A DNA stretch of 32,000 nt from Alkanindiges illinoisensis DSM 15370 (GCF_000619845.1 NZ_KK211037.1:365941-397940); one strand, 5' to 3'. Numbered from the stretch's first letter, positions 19,770-32,000 are shown. Numbers and translations are program-made. The notes: generated by a model from the sequence alone, not told the origin.

Positions 19770-19884
19770 TTATAGCGTGTATTGAGAGTACATCAATCAT
19801 GCTGCGATTTGCATCATTGGGTACATACACTCATGATGGAAAGGCTTGAACTTAAGGCCATTTGCATCACAGTCTATTTAAAGT

Positions 19885-20032
19885 TTGCTAGGGTTCCGGT
19901 TTTTGTAGGTCACAAAGATGCCTGGTCCGAGAGCAAACGGTTCTAACCAATTTTTGGTTTGGAACTACACGGCGGGACAAAAGCCCGGGAGATAAAACAC
20001 CTGCACCAGCCAGTGTGTACTCTCTGTTTTTT
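19885..20032 (+). promoter_or_regulatory. Guanidine-I riboswitch (ykkC-yxkD class) with a terminator-type expression platform
   Basis: All three conserved blocks of the ykkC aptamer are present in order: CTAGGGTTCCGG (19888-), CTGGTCCGAGAG (19922-) and ACACGGCGGGACAAAAGCCCGGGAGA (19967-19992). Downstream, a hairpin forms from GAGA...ACACCTG-caccagc-CAG(T)GTGT...TCTC, followed by T6 (20027-20032). Its 5' arm reuses the aptamer's 3' GGGAGA, as expected for an ON switch. Confidence 0.9.
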
Positions 20033-20058
20033 GGTTTGTCCTGTTGTGGAGTATGAGC

Positions 20059-20823
20059 ATGTCTTATTCATTATATTCTGTTGATCAGCCATTATGGTAC
20101 GAGCGATTACCCGGCGGACATCACTGGTCTGGCCGTGTTCGCCGCGGTACTGTGCTGCAATTTAAGGCCGAAGCAAGTAACGCCAACCTGTCGGTACTGT
20201 TTTTTAATGCCGAGGAAAAGCTGGAACGCTATAACATGCCGGATACCCTAAAGGCACAGCACACGGCATTTTTAACGGCCGGCCATGTCTGTTATTCCGA
20301 CATGGGCCGGGTGATGTGCTCAATCATTCGTGACGATACCGGCTGGATTGATACACTTTGCGGTGTGGCCGATGCTAGCCAGATTCAGGCGCAATACGGC
20401 AGTAAAACCTTTGGTGACGCCCGCAATGCCATGTTCCGCAATGGACGTGATGGCTTTCTGGTGGAAATGGAAAAGTGGGGACTGGGCCAGCAGGATCTGG
20501 TGGCCAATATCAACCTGTTCAGCAAGGTCAGTGCTGATGACCACGATGACAATCAGGGCGCACTGGTGTGGGCTGAGCAGCACAGCAAGGCAGATAACAT
20601 CATTGAGCTGCGTTTTGAGATGGAAACCCTGCTGATATTGTCCAGCGCGCCGCATCCACTCAATCCGGCGACCATTTACCAGCCTGCTGATATTTCAATC
20701 ACCGCTTATAAAGCAAACCCCATTGCACCTGATGACCTGTGCCGCAATTCCTGCCCGCAAAACCAGCGCGGTTTTGCCAATAACGCCCGCTATTTTGCTG
20801 AGCCCAGTTTAAGCCAATTTTGA
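20059..20823 (+). CDS. DUF1989 / urea-carboxylase-associated family protein (carboxyguanidine deiminase subunit type)
   Basis: This is the first gene after the riboswitch and one of two paralogous DUF1989-type ORFs preceding the carboxylase. I set the start at ATG 20059, 7 nt after GGAG; the track's 20044 is a TTG. Confidence 0.85.
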   Translation: MSYSLYSVDQPLWYERLPGGHHWSGRVRRGTVLQFKAEASNANLSVLFFNAEEKLERYNMPDTLKAQHTAFLTAGHVCYSDMGRVMCSIIRDDTGWIDTLCGVADASQIQAQYGSKTFGDARNAMFRNGRDGFLVEMEKWGLGQQDLVANINLFSKVSADDHDDNQGALVWAEQHSKADNIIELRFEMETLLILSSAPHPLNPATIYQPADISITAYKANPIAPDDLCRNSCPQNQRGFANNARYFAEPSLSQF

Positions 20824-20889
20824 CCAGAATAGTGACGAATTGAGCGTATCTAATTTCGTGCATCACGACTGAATTTAAGGAATAACAAC

Positions 20890-21588
20890 ATGGTCATTCA
20901 ATTTAAAGAAAGTACTTTACTGGAAAGCAATGCCATCCTGAATGAAGTTTGCCCTGCCGGTGAAGCCTGGATGGGCCTGGTCAAAAAAGGCCAGACGTTT
21001 CGTATTGTGGATCTGGAGGGCAATCAGGCCGTTGATACCCTGTTTATTAGTGCGCATGATGCCAATGAACGCTACAGCCCTAGCCAGACTATTGTGGCTA
21101 GCAGCCAGCTTTATCTGGGGCTGGGTTCAAGGTTGTATAGCAATGAAAACCGTCATATTGCCACCATCACAGCAGATACCTGTGGTCGCCATGACACCCT
21201 GGGTGGCGCCTGTTCGTGCGAAAGCAATACCGTGCGCTATGCTCATGACAAATATCCCATGCACAGTTGCCGCAATAATTTTATGTACGCGCTGGCCAAC
21301 CACCCGATTGCCCAAAAGGCAGGTTTAACCGTGCGGCATATTGGTGCCAACATTAACTTTTTTATGAATGTGCCCGTAACGCCAGACGGCCATTTACGCT
21401 TTGCTGATGGCATTTCTGCTGCCGGTAAATATGTGGAGCTGCAAGCCCAGATTGATTTGATTGTGCTGATTTCCAACTGTCCGCAGCTTAATAATCCGTG
21501 TAATGCCTACAACCCGACAGCCATTCGCTTGCTGGTCTGGGACACCATCGCAGATTCAACCACCCCACACTGCGGAGAGGCAGCCTGA
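20890..21588 (+). CDS. DUF1989 / urea-carboxylase-associated family protein (second carboxyguanidine deiminase subunit type)
   Basis: The 232-aa product is a paralogue of the previous gene (TFRIVDLEGNQAVDTLF, Cys-rich GGACSCESN). Its stop lies 1 nt before the carboxylase ATG. Confidence 0.85.
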   Translation: MVIQFKESTLLESNAILNEVCPAGEAWMGLVKKGQTFRIVDLEGNQAVDTLFISAHDANERYSPSQTIVASSQLYLGLGSRLYSNENRHIATITADTCGRHDTLGGACSCESNTVRYAHDKYPMHSCRNNFMYALANHPIAQKAGLTVRHIGANINFFMNVPVTPDGHLRFADGISAAGKYVELQAQIDLIVLISNCPQLNNPCNAYNPTAIRLLVWDTIADSTTPHCGEAA

Positions 21589-21589
21589 T

Positions 21590-25245
<3,656 letters not shown>

Positions 25246-25249
<4 letters not shown>

Positions 25250-26610
25250 CTGAGCACACACGAGAATTTGATTTGACTGATCTCAGTATTAGTAATCTGC
25301 GGACGGCTTATGCACAGGGCCTGACTCCGCTGCAACTGGTGGAATATCTGCTTGAGCGCATACAGGCGGAAGATTCTGGGGACAGCCATCAGGTCTGGAT
25401 TTATCAGCTCAGTGCAGACTGGCTGCGCGATTATACGCAACAACTGGCCCGTAAAAACCCGGCTGACTTGCCACTGTATGGGATTCCCTTTGCTATCAAG
25501 GACAATATTGATCTGGCAGGCGTGCCAACCACAGCCGCGTGCCCGAACTTTGCTAATGTACCAACAACTTCTGCCACCGTGGTGCAAAAGCTCATGGATG
25601 CTGGGGCCATTCCACTGGGCAAAACCAATCTGGACCAGTTTGCTACGGGATTAAATGGTACGCGGTCACCGTATGGCGTAGCGCGCAATAGCATTAATCC
25701 GGAATATATTGCTGGTGGTTCCAGCTCAGGTTCGGCACTGACAGTGGCTTTAAATCTGGCGTCATTTGCATTAGGCACCGATACGGCTGGTTCAGGCCGG
25801 GTGCCTGCTGCCTTTAATCAATTGGTGGGTGTAAAACCAACCTGCGGCTTATTGTCCAATAGTGGGGTTGTGCCTGCGTGCCGCAGTCTGGACAGTATAT
25901 CGATTTTTGCCAAAAATGCCGCCGATAGCCTTACCGTGCTAGAGGTTGCGCAAGGCTTTGATCCTAAAGAGCCGTATAGCAAGCCCATCCTGCTGGCAGA
26001 GCCAAAACTAGTAAAAACCATTGGCATTCCCCGGGCGGATCAGTTGCAGTTCTTTGGCGATAGTGACTATGCGGCGCTGTTTGCCAAGGCAATTCATCAA
26101 CTGCAAGCTCAGGGCTTTAGCGTGCAGGAAGTAGATTTTACGCCATTTCTGGAAGCGGCAAAATTGCTGTATGCCGGGCCATGGGTGGCTGAGCGCTACC
26201 ATGTGGTGCAGCATTTAATCCAGCAGCAGCCGGACAGTTTATTGCCCGTCATCCGTCAAATTATTGGCAAGGCCACGCAATTTAGTGCCGTGGATTGTTT
26301 TGCTGCCTTTTACCAGTTGGCCGAATACAAGTGTCAGGCTAACCAGATCATGGCATCGGTGGATGTAATGCTCACGCCAACGGCAGGCACTATTTTTAAA
26401 ATTAATGACATGCTAGCCAATCCGGTTGAACTCAATAACCAGCTCGGCTATTACACCAACTTCATGAACCTGCTGGATTTCTCGGCAATTGCGCTCCCAG
26501 CCGGACAGCGTGCTGATGGCTTGCCGTTTGGTATTACCTTCTTTGCAGCGGCGGCACAGGATTTAACCCTGCTTGATCTGGCGCAGCAACTGGAACAGGT
26601 ACTGGGCTAA
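25246..26610 (+). CDS. Allophanate hydrolase, amidase-signature (AS) catalytic domain only
   Basis: The product has the AS motifs FAIKDNIDLAG (catalytic Lys) and GGSSSGSA (Ser-cisSer). Its ATG overlaps the carboxylase stop (ATGA). At 454 aa it ends at the usual boundary between the AS domain and the C-terminal domain. Confidence 0.9.
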
Positions 26611-26647
26611 CCCGTAACAGGAAAGAAAATAGGATAGGAAAGAAAAT

Positions 26648-27043
26648 ATGAAAGACACGATTGATGTGGTGGTATGCGGCGCACATTTATCCGGCATGGC
26701 CTTGAATCCACAGTTGATTGAACGCGGCGCCATGCTAATCGAAACCACTGAATCTGCTGCTGAATACCGCTTGTATGCCATTGCAGGTGGCCCACCGTTT
26801 CGTCCTGCCATGGTAAAAGTTAGTCAGGATGGTGTGGCTATTCCTGTCGAGGTATGGCGTTTGTCGGCGGCGGCCTTTGGGGATTTTGTCAGCCTGATTC
26901 CAGCGCCACTGGGTATTGGCAAGGTCAGGCTGGCAGATGGCAGAGTAGAGTGCGGTTTTATTGCCGAACCGATTGCACTGGACGGCGCAACTGATATTAG
27001 CCATTTTGGGGGTTGGCGCAATTATCTTGCCAGTGTGCAGTAG
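26648..27043 (+). CDS. Allophanate hydrolase C-terminal domain protein (stand-alone)
   Basis: The 131-aa product (IDVVVCGAHLSGMALNPQLIERGA...YRLYAI...VEVWRLSAAAFGDFVSLIPAPLGIGKVRLADG) matches the C-terminal domain of about 130 aa in full-length allophanate hydrolases. It has its own AGGA RBS and lies in a different frame from the AS-domain ORF. Confidence 0.75.
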   Translation: MKDTIDVVVCGAHLSGMALNPQLIERGAMLIETTESAAEYRLYAIAGGPPFRPAMVKVSQDGVAIPVEVWRLSAAAFGDFVSLIPAPLGIGKVRLADGRVECGFIAEPIALDGATDISHFGGWRNYLASVQ

Positions 27044-27347: not shown

Positions 27348-27363
27348 TGGCACAGGGCTTGCT
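27348..27363 (+). promoter_or_regulatory. Sigma-54 (RpoN) -24/-12 promoter of the ABC transporter operon
   Basis: TGGCAC-AGGGC-TTGCT is a near-perfect match to TGGCAC-N5-TTGCW. It lies about 60 nt upstream of the SBP start codon. Confidence 0.7.
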
Positions 27364-27423
27364 TAGTACTCAGTATTACTAAAAGCAGTTTTTGTCATAC
27401 TGCATTGTCTTGAGGATATTCAC

Positions 27424-28485
27424 ATGATGAGTTTGTCCGTTTTACCGTCCAGAATGCCTGCCACGGCCTTACTGATTGCCATGCTGGCAAGTATCAGCCT
27501 GTTGTCGGGCTGTAGTAAAAGCAATGAGTCACCCACCACAACATCGGATAGCACTACTGCGGCCTCATCCAGCAGCAGTGCCGCACCCTTAAAGGTGGGT
27601 TATAGCGACTGGCCCGGCTGGGTGGCATGGCAGGTGGCCATTGAAAAAGGCTGGATTAAAGAGGCTGGCCTGAACGTGGATTTTCAGTGGTTTGATTATT
27701 CGGCATCATTGTCTGCCTTTGCAGCAGGCAAGCTGGATGGCGTGCTGGTCACCAACGGCGATAATCTGGTCAATGCTTCATCTGGCAGTCGTGGCATCAT
27801 CATTCTGGCTACCGATTACTCCAGCGGCAATGACATGATCATTGGTAAAAAGGGCATCAATTCACTGGCCGACCTAAAAGGCAAAACTGTGGCGGTAGAA
27901 AAAGGGCTGGTGGATCACCTGCTGCTTAACACCGCACTGGCCAAAAATAATATTGCCCCGGATTCCATTACCTTACTGAATGCACCCACCAATGAAATGC
28001 CGCAGGTACTGGCCTCTGGCAAGGTCGATGCAGTTGCCGTATGGCAGCCCGTTGCCGGACAGGCCCTCAAGGCTGTGGCTGGTTCCAAGGCACTGTATAC
28101 CTCTGCTGATGCACCGGGCCTGATTTACGATACGCTGGCAGTTTCGCCCAGCAGCCTTGGCCAGCACCGCGCTGACTGGGTAAAACTAAGCAAGGTCTGG
28201 GACAAAGTGGTGCATTACATCAATGACCCGAAAACCCAGCCGGATGCCTTAAAGATTATGTCAGCACGGGTAGGGCTGGAACCTGCCGCCTATGCCGAGT
28301 TTTTAAATGGTACCCACCTGCTGGACCTTGAAGGCAATAAAGGCGTGATGGTGAAAAAAGACGGCCTGGATTCACTGTATGGCTCGTCCTATAACGTCAA
28401 TAAATTCAACGTGGACAATGGCATTTATAACAAGCCAGTGAATGTTGACAGCCTGATTGATCCATCCGTGGTCAATGCAAAGTAA
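27424..28485 (+). CDS. ABC transporter substrate-binding lipoprotein, NitT/TauT (NMT1/SsuA-like) family; putative guanidine/nitrogen-compound binding
   Basis: The signal peptide has a lipobox (LLSGC) followed by a Ser/Thr-rich linker. The periplasmic-binding fold begins LKVGYSDWPGWVAW. GAGGA sits 7 nt before the ATG. Confidence 0.85.
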   Translation: MMSLSVLPSRMPATALLIAMLASISLLSGCSKSNESPTTTSDSTTAASSSSSAAPLKVGYSDWPGWVAWQVAIEKGWIKEAGLNVDFQWFDYSASLSAFAAGKLDGVLVTNGDNLVNASSGSRGIIILATDYSSGNDMIIGKKGINSLADLKGKTVAVEKGLVDHLLLNTALAKNNIAPDSITLLNAPTNEMPQVLASGKVDAVAVWQPVAGQALKAVAGSKALYTSADAPGLIYDTLAVSPSSLGQHRADWVKLSKVWDKVVHYINDPKTQPDALKIMSARVGLEPAAYAEFLNGTHLLDLEGNKGVMVKKDGLDSLYGSSYNVNKFNVDNGIYNKPVNVDSLIDPSVVNAK

Positions 28486-28796
28486 CTAAATGAATGAAAT
28501 GCGTGTTCACGCAGCAGGTATCCGCATGTCCAAAGCCATGTATTCCATTTATCAGCAACTGGTGCAACCACTTGGCCGCTACGGGCTTTTGCTGCTGCGT
28601 CTTTTAGCCCTGCGCGCTGGAGACAATGCACAGACACACCAGCTTTTATTGCAAAAATCACAGGCAATCAAGCCATCAAAGCAATCATAGCGAAGCGCAT
28701 TGCATTATTTTTAGGGGAGTAGGGCAGCTATTCAGGCTGCCAATGCTAGGGCTGGGCCTGGACAAGAGACTTGCTCAACCGGGGTAAAGTGGAATT

Positions 28797-29744
28797 ATGG
28801 TAAAAATATCTCAGGCCTTAAGTGCCAAACAAAATATTAGCCTGGGGGTACTGTCTTTCTTGCTGCCCTTACTGGTGTGGTGTGCAGTCAGCTATTTGCC
28901 GTTTATCTGGCATTCGCAGGTCATGATCAAGAATGCGGGCGATGTGGTTTATTTTGAACCAAATACCCGGATTGAACGTGATGTGTTTAATATGGAAGCC
29001 CACAATATGCAGACGCAAGGTTTGCAGATTCCTGAGGGCACACCCGTCAACCCGGTATATTTACCAGCCCCGCATGAAGTTGCCAAAGCACTGGTGACTG
29101 CATTTACCACGCCACCACCACAACCTACTGATCCGTGGCTACATCAAAGCCTGTGGCATAGTGTCAAACTGGTGTTTATTGCCTTTTTTATTTCATCGCT
29201 GATTGGTGTGCCTTTAGGGGTGTTGTGTGGCCATTCCCGCATTATTTCGCGGCTGGTGGAACCATTTGTGGAATTTTTTCGCTACTTGCCAGCACCTGCA
29301 TTTGGTGCCCTGATGGTAGCAATTCTGGGTATTTATGATGCGCCCAAGATTGCCATTATTGTAATTGGCACCTTGTTTCAGCAAATCCTGATTATTGCCA
29401 ACACCACCCGCAAGCTGGAAAACGGCTTGCTGGAAGCGGGCTTAACACTGGGCGCCAACCGCCGCCAGTTGCTGGGTCATGTGGTAATTCCCGGCATTTT
29501 ACCCGATGTGTACCGTGACCAGCGTGTCCTGCTGGGCTGGGCCTGGACTTACCTGATTGTGGCAGAACTGGTGGGCACCAGCTCCGGTATTACCTGGTTT
29601 ATTACCCAGCAGGCGCGTTACCAGAATTTTGACAATGTTTACGCAGCTATTTTGATTATTGGCGTGATTGGACTGGTGACCGACCTGATTCTGGCCTGGC
29701 TGGGCAAACGTCTGTTCCGTTGGGATAAAGGAGCAAAAAAATGA
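28797..29744 (+). CDS. ABC transporter permease (NitT/TauT family)
   Basis: The 315-aa multi-TM protein has an EAA-like loop (LEAGLTLGANRRQLLGHVVIPGILP). Its stop overlaps the ATPase ATG (ATGA). Confidence 0.85.
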   Translation: MVKISQALSAKQNISLGVLSFLLPLLVWCAVSYLPFIWHSQVMIKNAGDVVYFEPNTRIERDVFNMEAHNMQTQGLQIPEGTPVNPVYLPAPHEVAKALVTAFTTPPPQPTDPWLHQSLWHSVKLVFIAFFISSLIGVPLGVLCGHSRIISRLVEPFVEFFRYLPAPAFGALMVAILGIYDAPKIAIIVIGTLFQQILIIANTTRKLENGLLEAGLTLGANRRQLLGHVVIPGILPDVYRDQRVLLGWAWTYLIVAELVGTSSGITWFITQQARYQNFDNVYAAILIIGVIGLVTDLILAWLGKRLFRWDKGAKK

Positions 29745-30667
29745 CCGAACTTCAAATAACCGAACTCAAATCCTTGCAGTTTTACCAGATGCAGCCTGAG
29801 GTACAGGCCCGCTTTGGCCAGATTTACCAGCGTCCGGTGGTACTAAAAGTAGAAAAGCTGTCCAAGTATTATCACGGACAGGGCGAGAAAAAACTGGCAT
29901 TAAAAGACCTGAGCCTTGACATTTACCGCCGCGAATTTGTTTGCGTGATAGGGCCGTCCGGTTGTGGCAAGTCTACCTTTAGCCGCATTGTGGCCGGGCT
30001 GGAACCCTATGATGGCGGCAACGTTAAAGTGGATGATGAACAGGTGGGTGGCCCCTGCCGTAACCGGGGCATGGTGTTTCAGGGCTATACCCTGTTTCCA
30101 TGGCGCACCGTCAAGCAAAATGTCATGTTTGGCCCGCAAATGAACGGGGCTGACCGTGACAGCGCCGAAAAAGCTGCCCTGCAATGGCTGGAACTGATAG
30201 GGCTTGAACAATATGCCGATGCCTTTCCTGACCAGTTATCTGGTGGCATGAAACAACGGGTGGCCATTGCCCGTGCGCTGGTCAATGAACCTAAAATCCT
30301 GCTAATGGATGAACCCTTTGGCGCACTGGACCCGCACACCCGACAAAAAATGCAGCAACACCTGCTGGATATCTGGCGCAATATTGACATCACGGTGATT
30401 TTTGTCACCCATGACATGGATGAAGCTATTTTGCTGGCTGACCGCATTGTGGTGCTCAAAGCCAACCCGGGTGAACTGATTGAAATTATTGAAGTGCCCG
30501 TGTCCCGTCCGCGTCATCCCAGCCAAATGAACAGTCCAGAATTTATTGCCGTGCGCAACCATATTAACCAACTGGTGCATGGCGACGATGAAACGGAAGT
30601 GGAACCTGCACTGGCGGAGTTACCGCATATTCCACGCATGACCCGCGTGGATGACCGGGTTGAGTAA
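29741..30667 (+). CDS. ABC transporter ATP-binding protein (NitT/TauT family)
   Basis: The product has Walker A GPSGCGKST, a Q-loop, signature LSGGMKQRV, Walker B ILLMDEPFGALD and an H-loop (VTHD). Confidence 0.95.
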   Translation: MTELQITELKSLQFYQMQPEVQARFGQIYQRPVVLKVEKLSKYYHGQGEKKLALKDLSLDIYRREFVCVIGPSGCGKSTFSRIVAGLEPYDGGNVKVDDEQVGGPCRNRGMVFQGYTLFPWRTVKQNVMFGPQMNGADRDSAEKAALQWLELIGLEQYADAFPDQLSGGMKQRVAIARALVNEPKILLMDEPFGALDPHTRQKMQQHLLDIWRNIDITVIFVTHDMDEAILLADRIVVLKANPGELIEIIEVPVSRPRHPSQMNSPEFIAVRNHINQLVHGDDETEVEPALAELPHIPRMTRVDDRVE

Positions 30668-30732: not shown

Positions 30733-31233
30733 ATGGATACACCGCTAAAAGATCTGACGGCAGAAATACACAGTCAGGCGTGTTCATCAGTTGCGCCGGT
30801 TAGCCGGATTACCATGTCCTTGCCGCAGGAATTGCTGCGGGCACTGGACGACATGGTTACGCAGCGCGGGTTTGACAGCCGTTCGCAGGCTATTGCCGAC
30901 ATGATTCACCAGCAGGTCATGGCGCACAAGCAAAAGCTTGGCAATGAGGTAATGGTGGGTACGATTACCTTGCTGTATGATCGCTCCATGCCAAACCTGC
31001 AACGCCAGATTGCTGACCTGCAATACCAGAACTTAAGCGAAGTGATTAGCTCGCTGCATGTCAGTCTGGCGGATAACCAGATGATGGAGGTGGTGCTGAT
31101 ACAGGGCAGGGCCTGCCAGCTGGAAAAAATTGCTAACCAGTTGATTACCCTGCGTGGTGTGATTACCGGAAACTTGCAGTTGCTCACCGCCATCATGCCG
31201 CCCATTTCTTCACCAGCCACCGCACCCGCATGA
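30733..31233 (+). CDS. NikR-family (ribbon-helix-helix plus ACT-like domain) transcriptional regulator lacking most canonical Ni ligands
   Basis: The N-terminus is an RHH domain (RITMSLPQELLRALDDMVTQRGFDSRSQAIADMI). The C-terminal domain is colinear with the E. coli NikR metal-binding domain (GTITLLYD...SSLHVSLADNQMMEVVLIQG...ITLRGVITGNLQ). Confidence 0.7.
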   Translation: MDTPLKDLTAEIHSQACSSVAPVSRITMSLPQELLRALDDMVTQRGFDSRSQAIADMIHQQVMAHKQKLGNEVMVGTITLLYDRSMPNLQRQIADLQYQNLSEVISSLHVSLADNQMMEVVLIQGRACQLEKIANQLITLRGVITGNLQLLTAIMPPISSPATAPA

Positions 31234-31297: not shown

Positions 31298-32000
31298 ATG
31301 AGCAAAACAGACTGGACACGAGGTGAAGTGGCGCAGATTTATGGACAGCCGTTTAATGACCTGCTGTTTACTGCCCAGACTGTGCACCGCCAGCATTTTG
31401 ATCCCAACACCGTACAGGTTAGCACCTTATTGTCGATCAAGACCGGCGCCTGCCCTGAAGACTGTGGTTACTGCTCACAATCCAACAGCTATGACACCCC
31501 GCTCACCCCGCAAAAGAAACTGCACATTGATGAGGTGCTAAAGGCTGCACAGGCCGCCAAAGACAGTGGCTCATCACGCTTTTGCATGGGTGCTGCGTGG
31601 CGTAACCCGCATGAAAGGGATATGCCGTATGTGCTGGAGCTGGTACGTGAAGTCAAAGGTATGGGGCTGGAAACCTGCATGACGCTGGGAATGCTGACGC
31701 CCTCGCAGGCAGAACGGTTAGCCGATGCAGGCCTGGACTACTACAACCATAACCTCGATACCTCACGCCAGCATTACAGCAATGTGATCACCACCCGCAG
31801 CTTTGATGACCGCCTGCAAACTTTAGAGCATGTGCGTAACAGTGGCATGAAAGTGTGTAGTGGTGGCATTTTAGGCTTAGGTGAGCAGCAAAGCGACCGC
31901 ATCAGCTTATTGCATGAACTGGCCACCCAGCCCATCCATCCCCAGTCAGTACCCATCAATATGCTGGTGCCGATTGCAGGCACTCCCCTTGCAGATGCCC
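31298..32000 (+). CDS. bioB: Biotin synthase (radical SAM); 3' end lies outside the window
   Basis: I translated this by hand from ATG 31298: [24 protein letters not shown]...[13 protein letters not shown] (CxxxCxxC), [19 protein letters not shown]. The frame stays open to the window edge, so it is absent from the ORF track. Confidence 0.95.

Follow-up and report, generated by a model that had tools for sequence, protein, structure and literature searches.

Described Systems and the Locus Considered Here

The regulator considered in this study finds its closest described counterpart in NikR, and the structures known from P. horikoshii (2bj1, 2bj3 and 2bj7), H. pylori (2ca9 and 6mrj) and E. 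coli (1q5v, 2hza and 2hzv) share with it a two-domain architecture and a common fold. NikR operators consist of half-sites of 6–7 bp standing 14–16 bp apart, and so does the operator predicted below. In E. coli the nikR gene follows nikABCDE, whose promoter carries the operator, and the same layout recurs here, the regulator gene closing the operon of an ABC importer and the operator standing at the importer promoter. The differences from NikR are also several. Its four nickel ligands (His3Cys) are reduced to one in the present protein and range from none to three, the cysteine never among them, across the clade to which the protein belongs, the second-shell histidines and the glutamate of the K+/low-affinity site are replaced, and the clade has an A-x-x-P-P tail and other invariant residues of its own. 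The predicted target is a NitT/TauT importer within a guanidine locus, rather than a nickel transporter or enzyme, and the promoter is of the sigma-54 type.

The same set of genes is controlled by guanidine riboswitches (guanidine-I or ykkC, RF00442, and guanidine-II or mini-ykkC, RF01068). These are made of RNA and are cis-acting ON switches with a proven ligand, whereas the NikR-like regulator is a protein that would act through a DNA operator at a separate promoter. Riboswitch and regulator nonetheless coexist in one locus, the former with the genes of catabolism and the latter with those of import. A search of the literature found no protein sensor of guanidine, only four classes of riboswitch being described, and a full-text search found no description of a NikR-like regulator of guanidine loci.

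The importer has a possible precedent in GimABC of Synechocystis, an ABC system of the NitT/TauT family with an affinity for guanidine of about 97 nM; a nitrogen-regulated promoter of its own drives it, while the neighboring catabolic gene has a guanidine-I riboswitch (PMC12704784). Nitrogen control of GimABC is exerted by NtcA, and no dedicated repressor has been described (PMC12704784). The window (by which I mean the whole stretch of 32,000 nucleotides analyzed here) contains a substrate-binding protein (SBP), a permease and an ATPase of the same family, linked to guanidine catabolic genes and riboswitches. By family and by neighborhood, therefore, its importer appears to be GimABC-like, differing in that a sigma-54-type promoter and a predicted NikR-like operator are found in place of control by NtcA.

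My reading of the locus is that a repressor of NikR fold, without nickel sensing, controls the importer operon through a dyad, TATTAC-N14-GTAATA. I would give it a probability of about 0.7.

The Regulator and Its Former Nickel Site

The nikR-like gene (30733..31233, + strand) is an open reading frame of 166 amino acids, encoding a ribbon-helix-helix (RHH) DNA-binding domain at approximately residues 24–68, a NikR_C/ACT-like domain at residues 74–151, and the tail A-x-x-P-P at residues 153–157. Pfam recognizes NikR_C at residues 75–150 (E 8.8e-21) and RHH_1 at residues 25–61 (E 3.5e-5). The NCBIfam models give divided results: the protein narrowly exceeds the cut-off of NF003381 (NikR; 111.7 bits vs. 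105) and exceeds that of NF002815 (NikR equivalog; 84.9 vs. 83), and it falls below those of TIGR02793 (79.1 vs. 175) and NF002169 (98.1 vs. 111). The sequence matches found in PDB by phmmer are NikR proteins only, the best being P. horikoshii 2bj1 (E 4.5e-27), followed by those of H. pylori and E. coli. An AlphaFold model, made from an alignment of 29 sequences, has the order beta-alpha-alpha and then beta-alpha-beta-beta-alpha-beta, and its C-domain scores above 90 in pLDDT; the model represents a monomer, whereas the sensor site of NikR sits at a subunit interface. The top PDB matches listed by Foldseek are all NikR chains, to which the C-domain compares with a TM of about 0.9 and an rmsd of 1.2–1.7 Å. 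Pfam, phmmer, AlphaFold and Foldseek all agree, then, on the NikR architecture (RHH plus ACT-like domain) that the earlier note had proposed for this protein. The DNA-binding domain itself has R25 and S29 in common with canonical NikR and keeps the pattern R-x-(S/T)-x-S of the RHH beta-strand.

The nickel site is a different matter. Alignment by phmmer to 2bj1 and to H. pylori NikR places the four columns of the high-affinity nickel ligands at Y98, H109, S111 and M117. In 52 canonical NikR representatives these columns are occupied by H, H, H and C in 100% of the cases. The protein encoded in the window retains only one of the four, H109 (the histidine of LHV), and has in place of the cysteine M117, the first methionine of 'MMEV'. 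The earlier note, on the basis of an alignment by eye, had claimed that this one histidine survives and had named the residues that replace the other three ligands; the residue-level alignment gives the same count and the same substitutions (Y98, S111 and M117). With Y98/H109/S111/M117 the protein does not have the His3Cys square-planar nickel site.

Changes extend beyond the ligands. The second-shell histidine pair that follows beta1, H84/H85, is R84/S85 in the protein and its clade, the glutamate of the 'RSEAI' motif, part of the K+/low-affinity site of NikR, is replaced by Q52, invariant in the clade, and the histidine of the 'GV-x-HG' motif is replaced in the clade by T145. As far as can be judged from its sequence, the protein is of the NikR-family fold without the NikR nickel site, and I infer that its effector is something other than nickel. 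Comparison with the ortholog of A. hydrocarboniclasticus gives a dN/dS of 0.09 for the whole gene and of 0.05 for its core (residues 23–160), with a dS of 0.73, indicating that the gene is under purifying selection and not decaying.

A Clade without the Ligand Cysteine

A search of 5.8 billion proteins yielded 865 matches at E ≤ 1e-10, the best 120 of which are 53–94% identical to the query. Not one of these 120 best homologs has a cysteine at column 117, where M, V, L, I or T stands instead. The residues met with at column 98 are Y, F, C and H, and those at column 111 are H, S, Q and N, H109 being the only constant ligand column. The signature Y-H-S-M of the window protein is restricted to its closest homologs (at least 81% identity), those with names being from Alkanindiges. 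Most members of the clade keep both H109 and H111, and eight of the 120 keep three histidines (HHHT). Among the beta-proteobacterial members, many still have two or three ligand histidines along with further histidines at columns 100 and 114; to judge from these residues, such proteins might bind metal.

A broader view was obtained from a HMMER search of the whole library, with 50%-identity representatives, which gave 1212 relatives, and from a quick maximum likelihood tree (IQ-TREE) of 141 sequences. A branch with a support of 97, as assessed by SH-aLRT only, parts the 52 canonical HHHC proteins from 87 sequences without the full His3Cys, among which one fragmentary row (P0149) still has a cysteine at the ligand column. 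The guanidine-locus group is nested within these 87. There is a wide radiation beyond that group (87 of 141; proteins P0122–P0267), with such signatures at the ligand columns as RHQR, RNLS, RRLV and THFS.

Within the clade the ligand columns vary more than most, the remainder of the protein being highly conserved. Invariant residues are M41, S49, Q52, M57, H65, K66, M74, Q90, A94, E103, V104, L122, Q124, T145, Q149, L150, A153, P156 and P157, the last three belonging to the C-terminal A-x-x-P-P tail. Some distant orthologs with the same operator (described below) have serine or threonine even at column 109 and are left with a single ligand or with no ligand at all. The former nickel site is therefore dispensable for the function of the clade.

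These observations bear on the possibility that the metal site has been remodeled, for nickel or for some other metal, rather than lost. The regulator would then be a nickel-sparing switch, turning on the importer and the nickel-independent but ATP-costly carboxylase route when nickel-dependent urease or guanidinase cannot work. The supposition that the organism has no use for nickel is contradicted by its genome, in which genes for the alpha subunit of urease and for a nickel permease (HupE/UreJ) lie approximately 4 kb apart (G000:C3:431116-436006), even if searches of it found neither NicO nor NiFe hydrogenase. Nor does the genome encode a canonical NikR: the nikR-like protein is the only NikR_C protein in its 3.3 Mb. 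The histidines retained by most of the clade, the eight HHHT proteins and the common extra histidines at columns 100 and 114 also speak for a metal. Against it stand the single ligand of the window protein, the orthologs that have the same operator with at most one ligand, the complete absence of the cysteine from the 120 best homologs, and the variability of just those columns in a protein otherwise so conserved. Furthermore, the urease and HupE genes have no operator-like site nearer than 20 kb; the predicted operator precedes a NitT/TauT importer, not genes for nickel uptake or nickel enzymes, and it is with guanidine riboswitches, rather than metal genes, that the operon is associated. I consider metal sensing highly improbable.

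It might also be supposed that the protein responds to no small molecule at all but is a constitutive autorepressor that damps the output of a strong sigma-54 promoter, the signal entering wholly by way of an enhancer-binding activator. The regulator is indeed encoded within the operon it would repress, and the alignment columns of the clade reveal no conserved polar pocket in place of the nickel site. The invariant residues, however, include the polar H65, K66, Q90, E103, Q124, T145 and Q149, the ACT-like domain and the A-x-x-P-P tail are conserved, and a core dN/dS as low as that found seems beyond the needs of tetramerization alone. Simple RHH autorepressors usually have no ACT-like domain. 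A regulator devoid of an effector is thus improbable, and a NikR-fold repressor that answers to some ligand other than nickel is preferred.

The proteins in question bear the database name 'nickel-responsive transcriptional regulator NikR', a label likely to be mistaken in hundreds of species.

Organization of the Locus in the Window

All of the genes to be described lie on the + strand. The first element is a guanidine-I (ykkC) riboswitch (19877-19993; 91.7 bits), which precedes the catabolic operon (20044..27043). The operon, as identified by domain matches, comprises cgdA/UAAP1 (20044-20823) and cgdB/UAAP2 (20890-21588), both DUF1989 proteins of the carboxyguanidine deiminase type, a biotin carboxylase of the urea/guanidine carboxylase type (21503-25249; 1248 amino acids), and allophanate hydrolase. 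The last is split into two open reading frames (25246-26610 and 26648-27043), an amidase domain of 454 amino acids and an AH_C domain of 131 amino acids in a different frame.

The importer operon begins with an element resembling a sigma-54 promoter, TGGCAC-N5-TTGC (27348..27362), followed by the predicted operator, TATTAC-N14-GTcATA (27374..27399). The first gene (27424..28485, with its ATG at 27424) encodes a periplasmic SBP of the NitT/TauT family (NMT1; Pfam NMT1/NMT1_2), which by analogy with GimABC is the probable guanidine-binding component. It is separated by a spacer of 310 nt (28486-28796), inside the importer operon and free of any operator-like dyad, from the gene for the ABC permease (28797..29744; BPD_transp_1 by Pfam), whose stop codon is overlapped by the gene for the ABC ATPase (29741..30667). 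The nikR-like gene starts 65 nt after the stop codon of the ATPase gene, and a scan found no terminator-like hairpin in the gap, just as the earlier note had it in describing the regulator as attached to the transport operon.

Conservation of the Locus across Species

To describe the locus beyond Alkanindiges, I made use of a scan of one genome per species, which found relatives of the regulator in 514 species genomes. Eighty loci were kept, with flanks of up to 10 kb, and compared to the proteins of the window by tblastn. Genes for the SBP, permease or ATPase are present in 69 of the 80, and in every locus with a match to the ATPase the importer precedes the regulator and is read in the same direction. 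In ten of the 11 loci without a match to the transporter, the contig breaks off less than 2.6 kb upstream of the gene. Genes for cgdA, cgdB, the carboxylase or the hydrolase are present in 64 loci. Altogether 78 of the 80 contain the importer, the guanidine carboxylase genes or both, so that the association with such loci, suggested before on the strength of the window, holds across species; the genomes are related and the samples non-independent, and these counts are to be taken as consistency, not as statistical proof.

Riboswitches accompany the catabolic genes in the loci sampled, guanidine-I before cgdA and guanidine-II between cgdB and the carboxylase gene. Guanidine-II (mini-ykkC) sites were found at L036:15919-15963, L020:11941-11987, L063:11868-11914 and L044:12283-12329. 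These four loci are beta- and gamma-proteobacterial, and in them the nikR-like gene directly precedes cgdA.

A Predicted Operator at a Sigma-54-Type Promoter

When the regions upstream of the SBP genes of Moraxellaceae were aligned, a conserved block appeared directly after the sigma-54-type promoter. All of the loci (1.29 Mb) were therefore scanned for TATTAC-N(13–15)-GTAATA, permitting one mismatch at most. The scan found 63 sites, as compared to 2–4 in shuffled sequence, and the spacing is exactly 14 in all but two of them. Of equal note is their position: 58 sites, that of the window included, are directly upstream of an SBP gene, and at 57 of these 58 the element TGGCAY-N5-yTGC ends 5–20 nt upstream of the operator.

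The consensus may be extended to RTATTAC-N14-GTAATAM, which can be expressed in a 28-bp form as GTATTA-N16-TAATAC. The site in the window, taken with one flanking base on each side, is GTATTA-N16-TCATAC, and the E. coli nik operator, GTATGA-N16-TCATAC, is in the same register. The predicted operator thus has the half-site dyad geometry of NikR operators.

The genome possesses rpoN. Counting from the usual -12 position of the GC, transcription would begin near 27374, where the operator itself begins. Sigma-54 promoters are of the type associated with nitrogen limitation, and an operator that spans +1 to +26 of such a promoter occupies the position of a repressor site. Repression is the sense in which I take the overlap of the operator with the predicted start, and the comparisons of sequence argue strongly that the regulator binds the dyad and represses the importer operon.

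The earlier note had suggested that the regulator acts on local genes and had pointed to two promoter regions. This is borne out for one of them, since a conserved operator at 27.35–27.40 kb tracks the gene, but not for the other, at 19.4–19.9 kb. Around the promoter and riboswitch of cgdA (19.2–20.1 kb) there is nothing better than a site with three mismatches and the wrong spacing, and no comparable operator was found in the 32-kb window besides 27374-27399.

Across the whole genome, 15 sites have one mismatch at most, a number at the level of chance (8–15 in shuffled sequence), and only the site in the window stands at a promoter. The best of the additional sites (C6:89619) was dismissed because it lies within AT-rich coding sequence. 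Also dismissed was a palindrome that a first screen returned in 15 loci, TGAATAT-N5-ATATTCA, which proved to be specific to the lineage of Gallionellaceae and Thiobacillus and so not a shared motif; the stretch consists largely of the left half-site of the operator and its spacer.

Moraxellaceae with and without the Regulator

The family Moraxellaceae, from which 397 genomes were sampled, provides a natural comparison. In one genus (g20), 70 of 121 genomes have a distant ortholog of the regulator (41–52% identity) together with an ortholog of the SBP. In another (g18), 14 of 124 genomes have the SBP ortholog and no regulator of this clade. I obtained all 14 of the loci without the regulator and six of those with it.

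The six loci with the regulator all have operators (0–2 mismatches), one before nikR-like-(hydrolase)-SBP and another before permease-ATPase, and none of the 14 loci without the regulator has one. The operator, in other words, tracks the regulator. The g20 orthologs (L099–L104; 41–51% identity) differ from the gene in the window in that they head their operon rather than end it.

In the 14 loci that lack the regulator, the carboxylase, hydrolase, SBP, permease and ATPase genes form one co-directional string, and in the two of them that were extended upstream a guanidine-I riboswitch is found where the leader of the operon would be expected. Two of the loci with the regulator were extended upstream as well, and these keep the guanidine-I riboswitch, placed as the leader of cgdA should be. 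The regulator takes over the importer and does not replace the riboswitch.

Proposed Control of the Importer Operon and Its Effector

The control envisioned is as follows. A tetrameric RHH repressor would bind the dyad that starts at about +1 of the sigma-54 promoter and so control the operon SBP-permease-ATPase-nikR-like (possibly with bioB as well), that is to say the importer and the regulator itself. The catabolic genes (cgdAB, carboxylase and allophanate hydrolase) would be switched separately, by the guanidine-I riboswitch. That the importer carries guanidine may be supposed from the gene string it shares with a guanidine riboswitch in the relatives without the regulator and from the precedent of GimABC.

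Concerning the effector, guanidine (as guanidinium), a near relative or a metabolite of its pathway is my leading guess, one that I hold at somewhat less than even odds. Should it be right, the sign of the response could go either way. The ligand might free the repressor from its operator, in which case the promoter would function as an AND gate, open only under nitrogen limitation and in the presence of guanidine. This would agree with the situation in relatives that have no regulator, where the riboswitch driving the same importer is likewise an ON switch. Alternatively, the ligand might strengthen repression, as in NikR, giving feedback against the toxic over-import of a chaotrope. I lean slightly towards ligand-induced release.

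The same repressor might, however, control the same operon in response to a different nitrogen metabolite, and the genes that accompany it in many species give some reason to think so. Two further genes, one of the creatininase family (PF02633) and one type III glutamine-synthetase-like (GS-like), lie between those of the ATPase and the regulator in 53 of 70 loci, a hint that the substrate or the effector may not be free guanidine itself. The candidates would be urea, carboxyguanidine, allophanate, glutamine, 2-oxoglutarate, or a compound consumed or made by the creatininase-like or GS-III-like enzyme, both of which are encoded in the operon in most beta-proteobacteria. Besides, guanidine-I and guanidine-II riboswitches already sense guanidine in these loci, and a second sensor could be redundant. 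On the other hand, the loci of Moraxellaceae, including that of the window, lack both of the additional genes and still keep the regulator and its operator; only the importer and the guanidine carboxylase genes accompany the regulator throughout; and the importer belongs to one string of genes with a guanidine riboswitch in those relatives that lack the regulator. Another nitrogen metabolite is on balance a doubtful choice, though one to be taken seriously. The pair of additional genes, examples of which are at L044:7460-9697 and L032:7738-9934, falls within the operator-controlled operon, and the GS-like protein scores 652 bits with TIGR03105. No paper linking creatininase-family and GS-like genes to guanidine loci was found in the literature search.

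If guanidine is nonetheless the effector, the NikR scaffold, in origin that of a metal sensor, would have given rise to the first protein known to sense guanidine, an outcome I regard as possible but short of an even bet. Import would be gated by a protein at a sigma-54 promoter and catabolism by riboswitches, making of protein and RNA a two-layer homeostat that would keep in balance a compound both nutritious and toxic. The regulator is in any case a candidate for a sensor in guanidine metabolism that is a protein and not an RNA. The clade supplies what is needed to pursue the matter: a regulator, a predicted operator of 26 bp, a target operon and a natural comparison of genomes with and without them. 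It also illustrates how the fold of a textbook metalloregulator can part with the whole metal site and yet keep its mode of DNA recognition and its operon layout. Were the regulator to respond to guanidine, the pair of protein and operator would be a useful part for synthetic biology, alongside the riboswitches.

The window ends within bioB (31298..32000, + strand), encoding a radical-SAM biotin synthase and cut by the end of the contig. The gene starts 64 nt after the nikR-like gene and may be co-transcribed with the importer operon. It is found at a similar distance (about 60–100 nt) after the nikR-like gene in two other loci (L002:10555-11256 and L003:703-1404), and among the 80 loci this arrangement occurs only in Alkanindiges. 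There bioB adjoins a locus whose key enzyme needs biotin.
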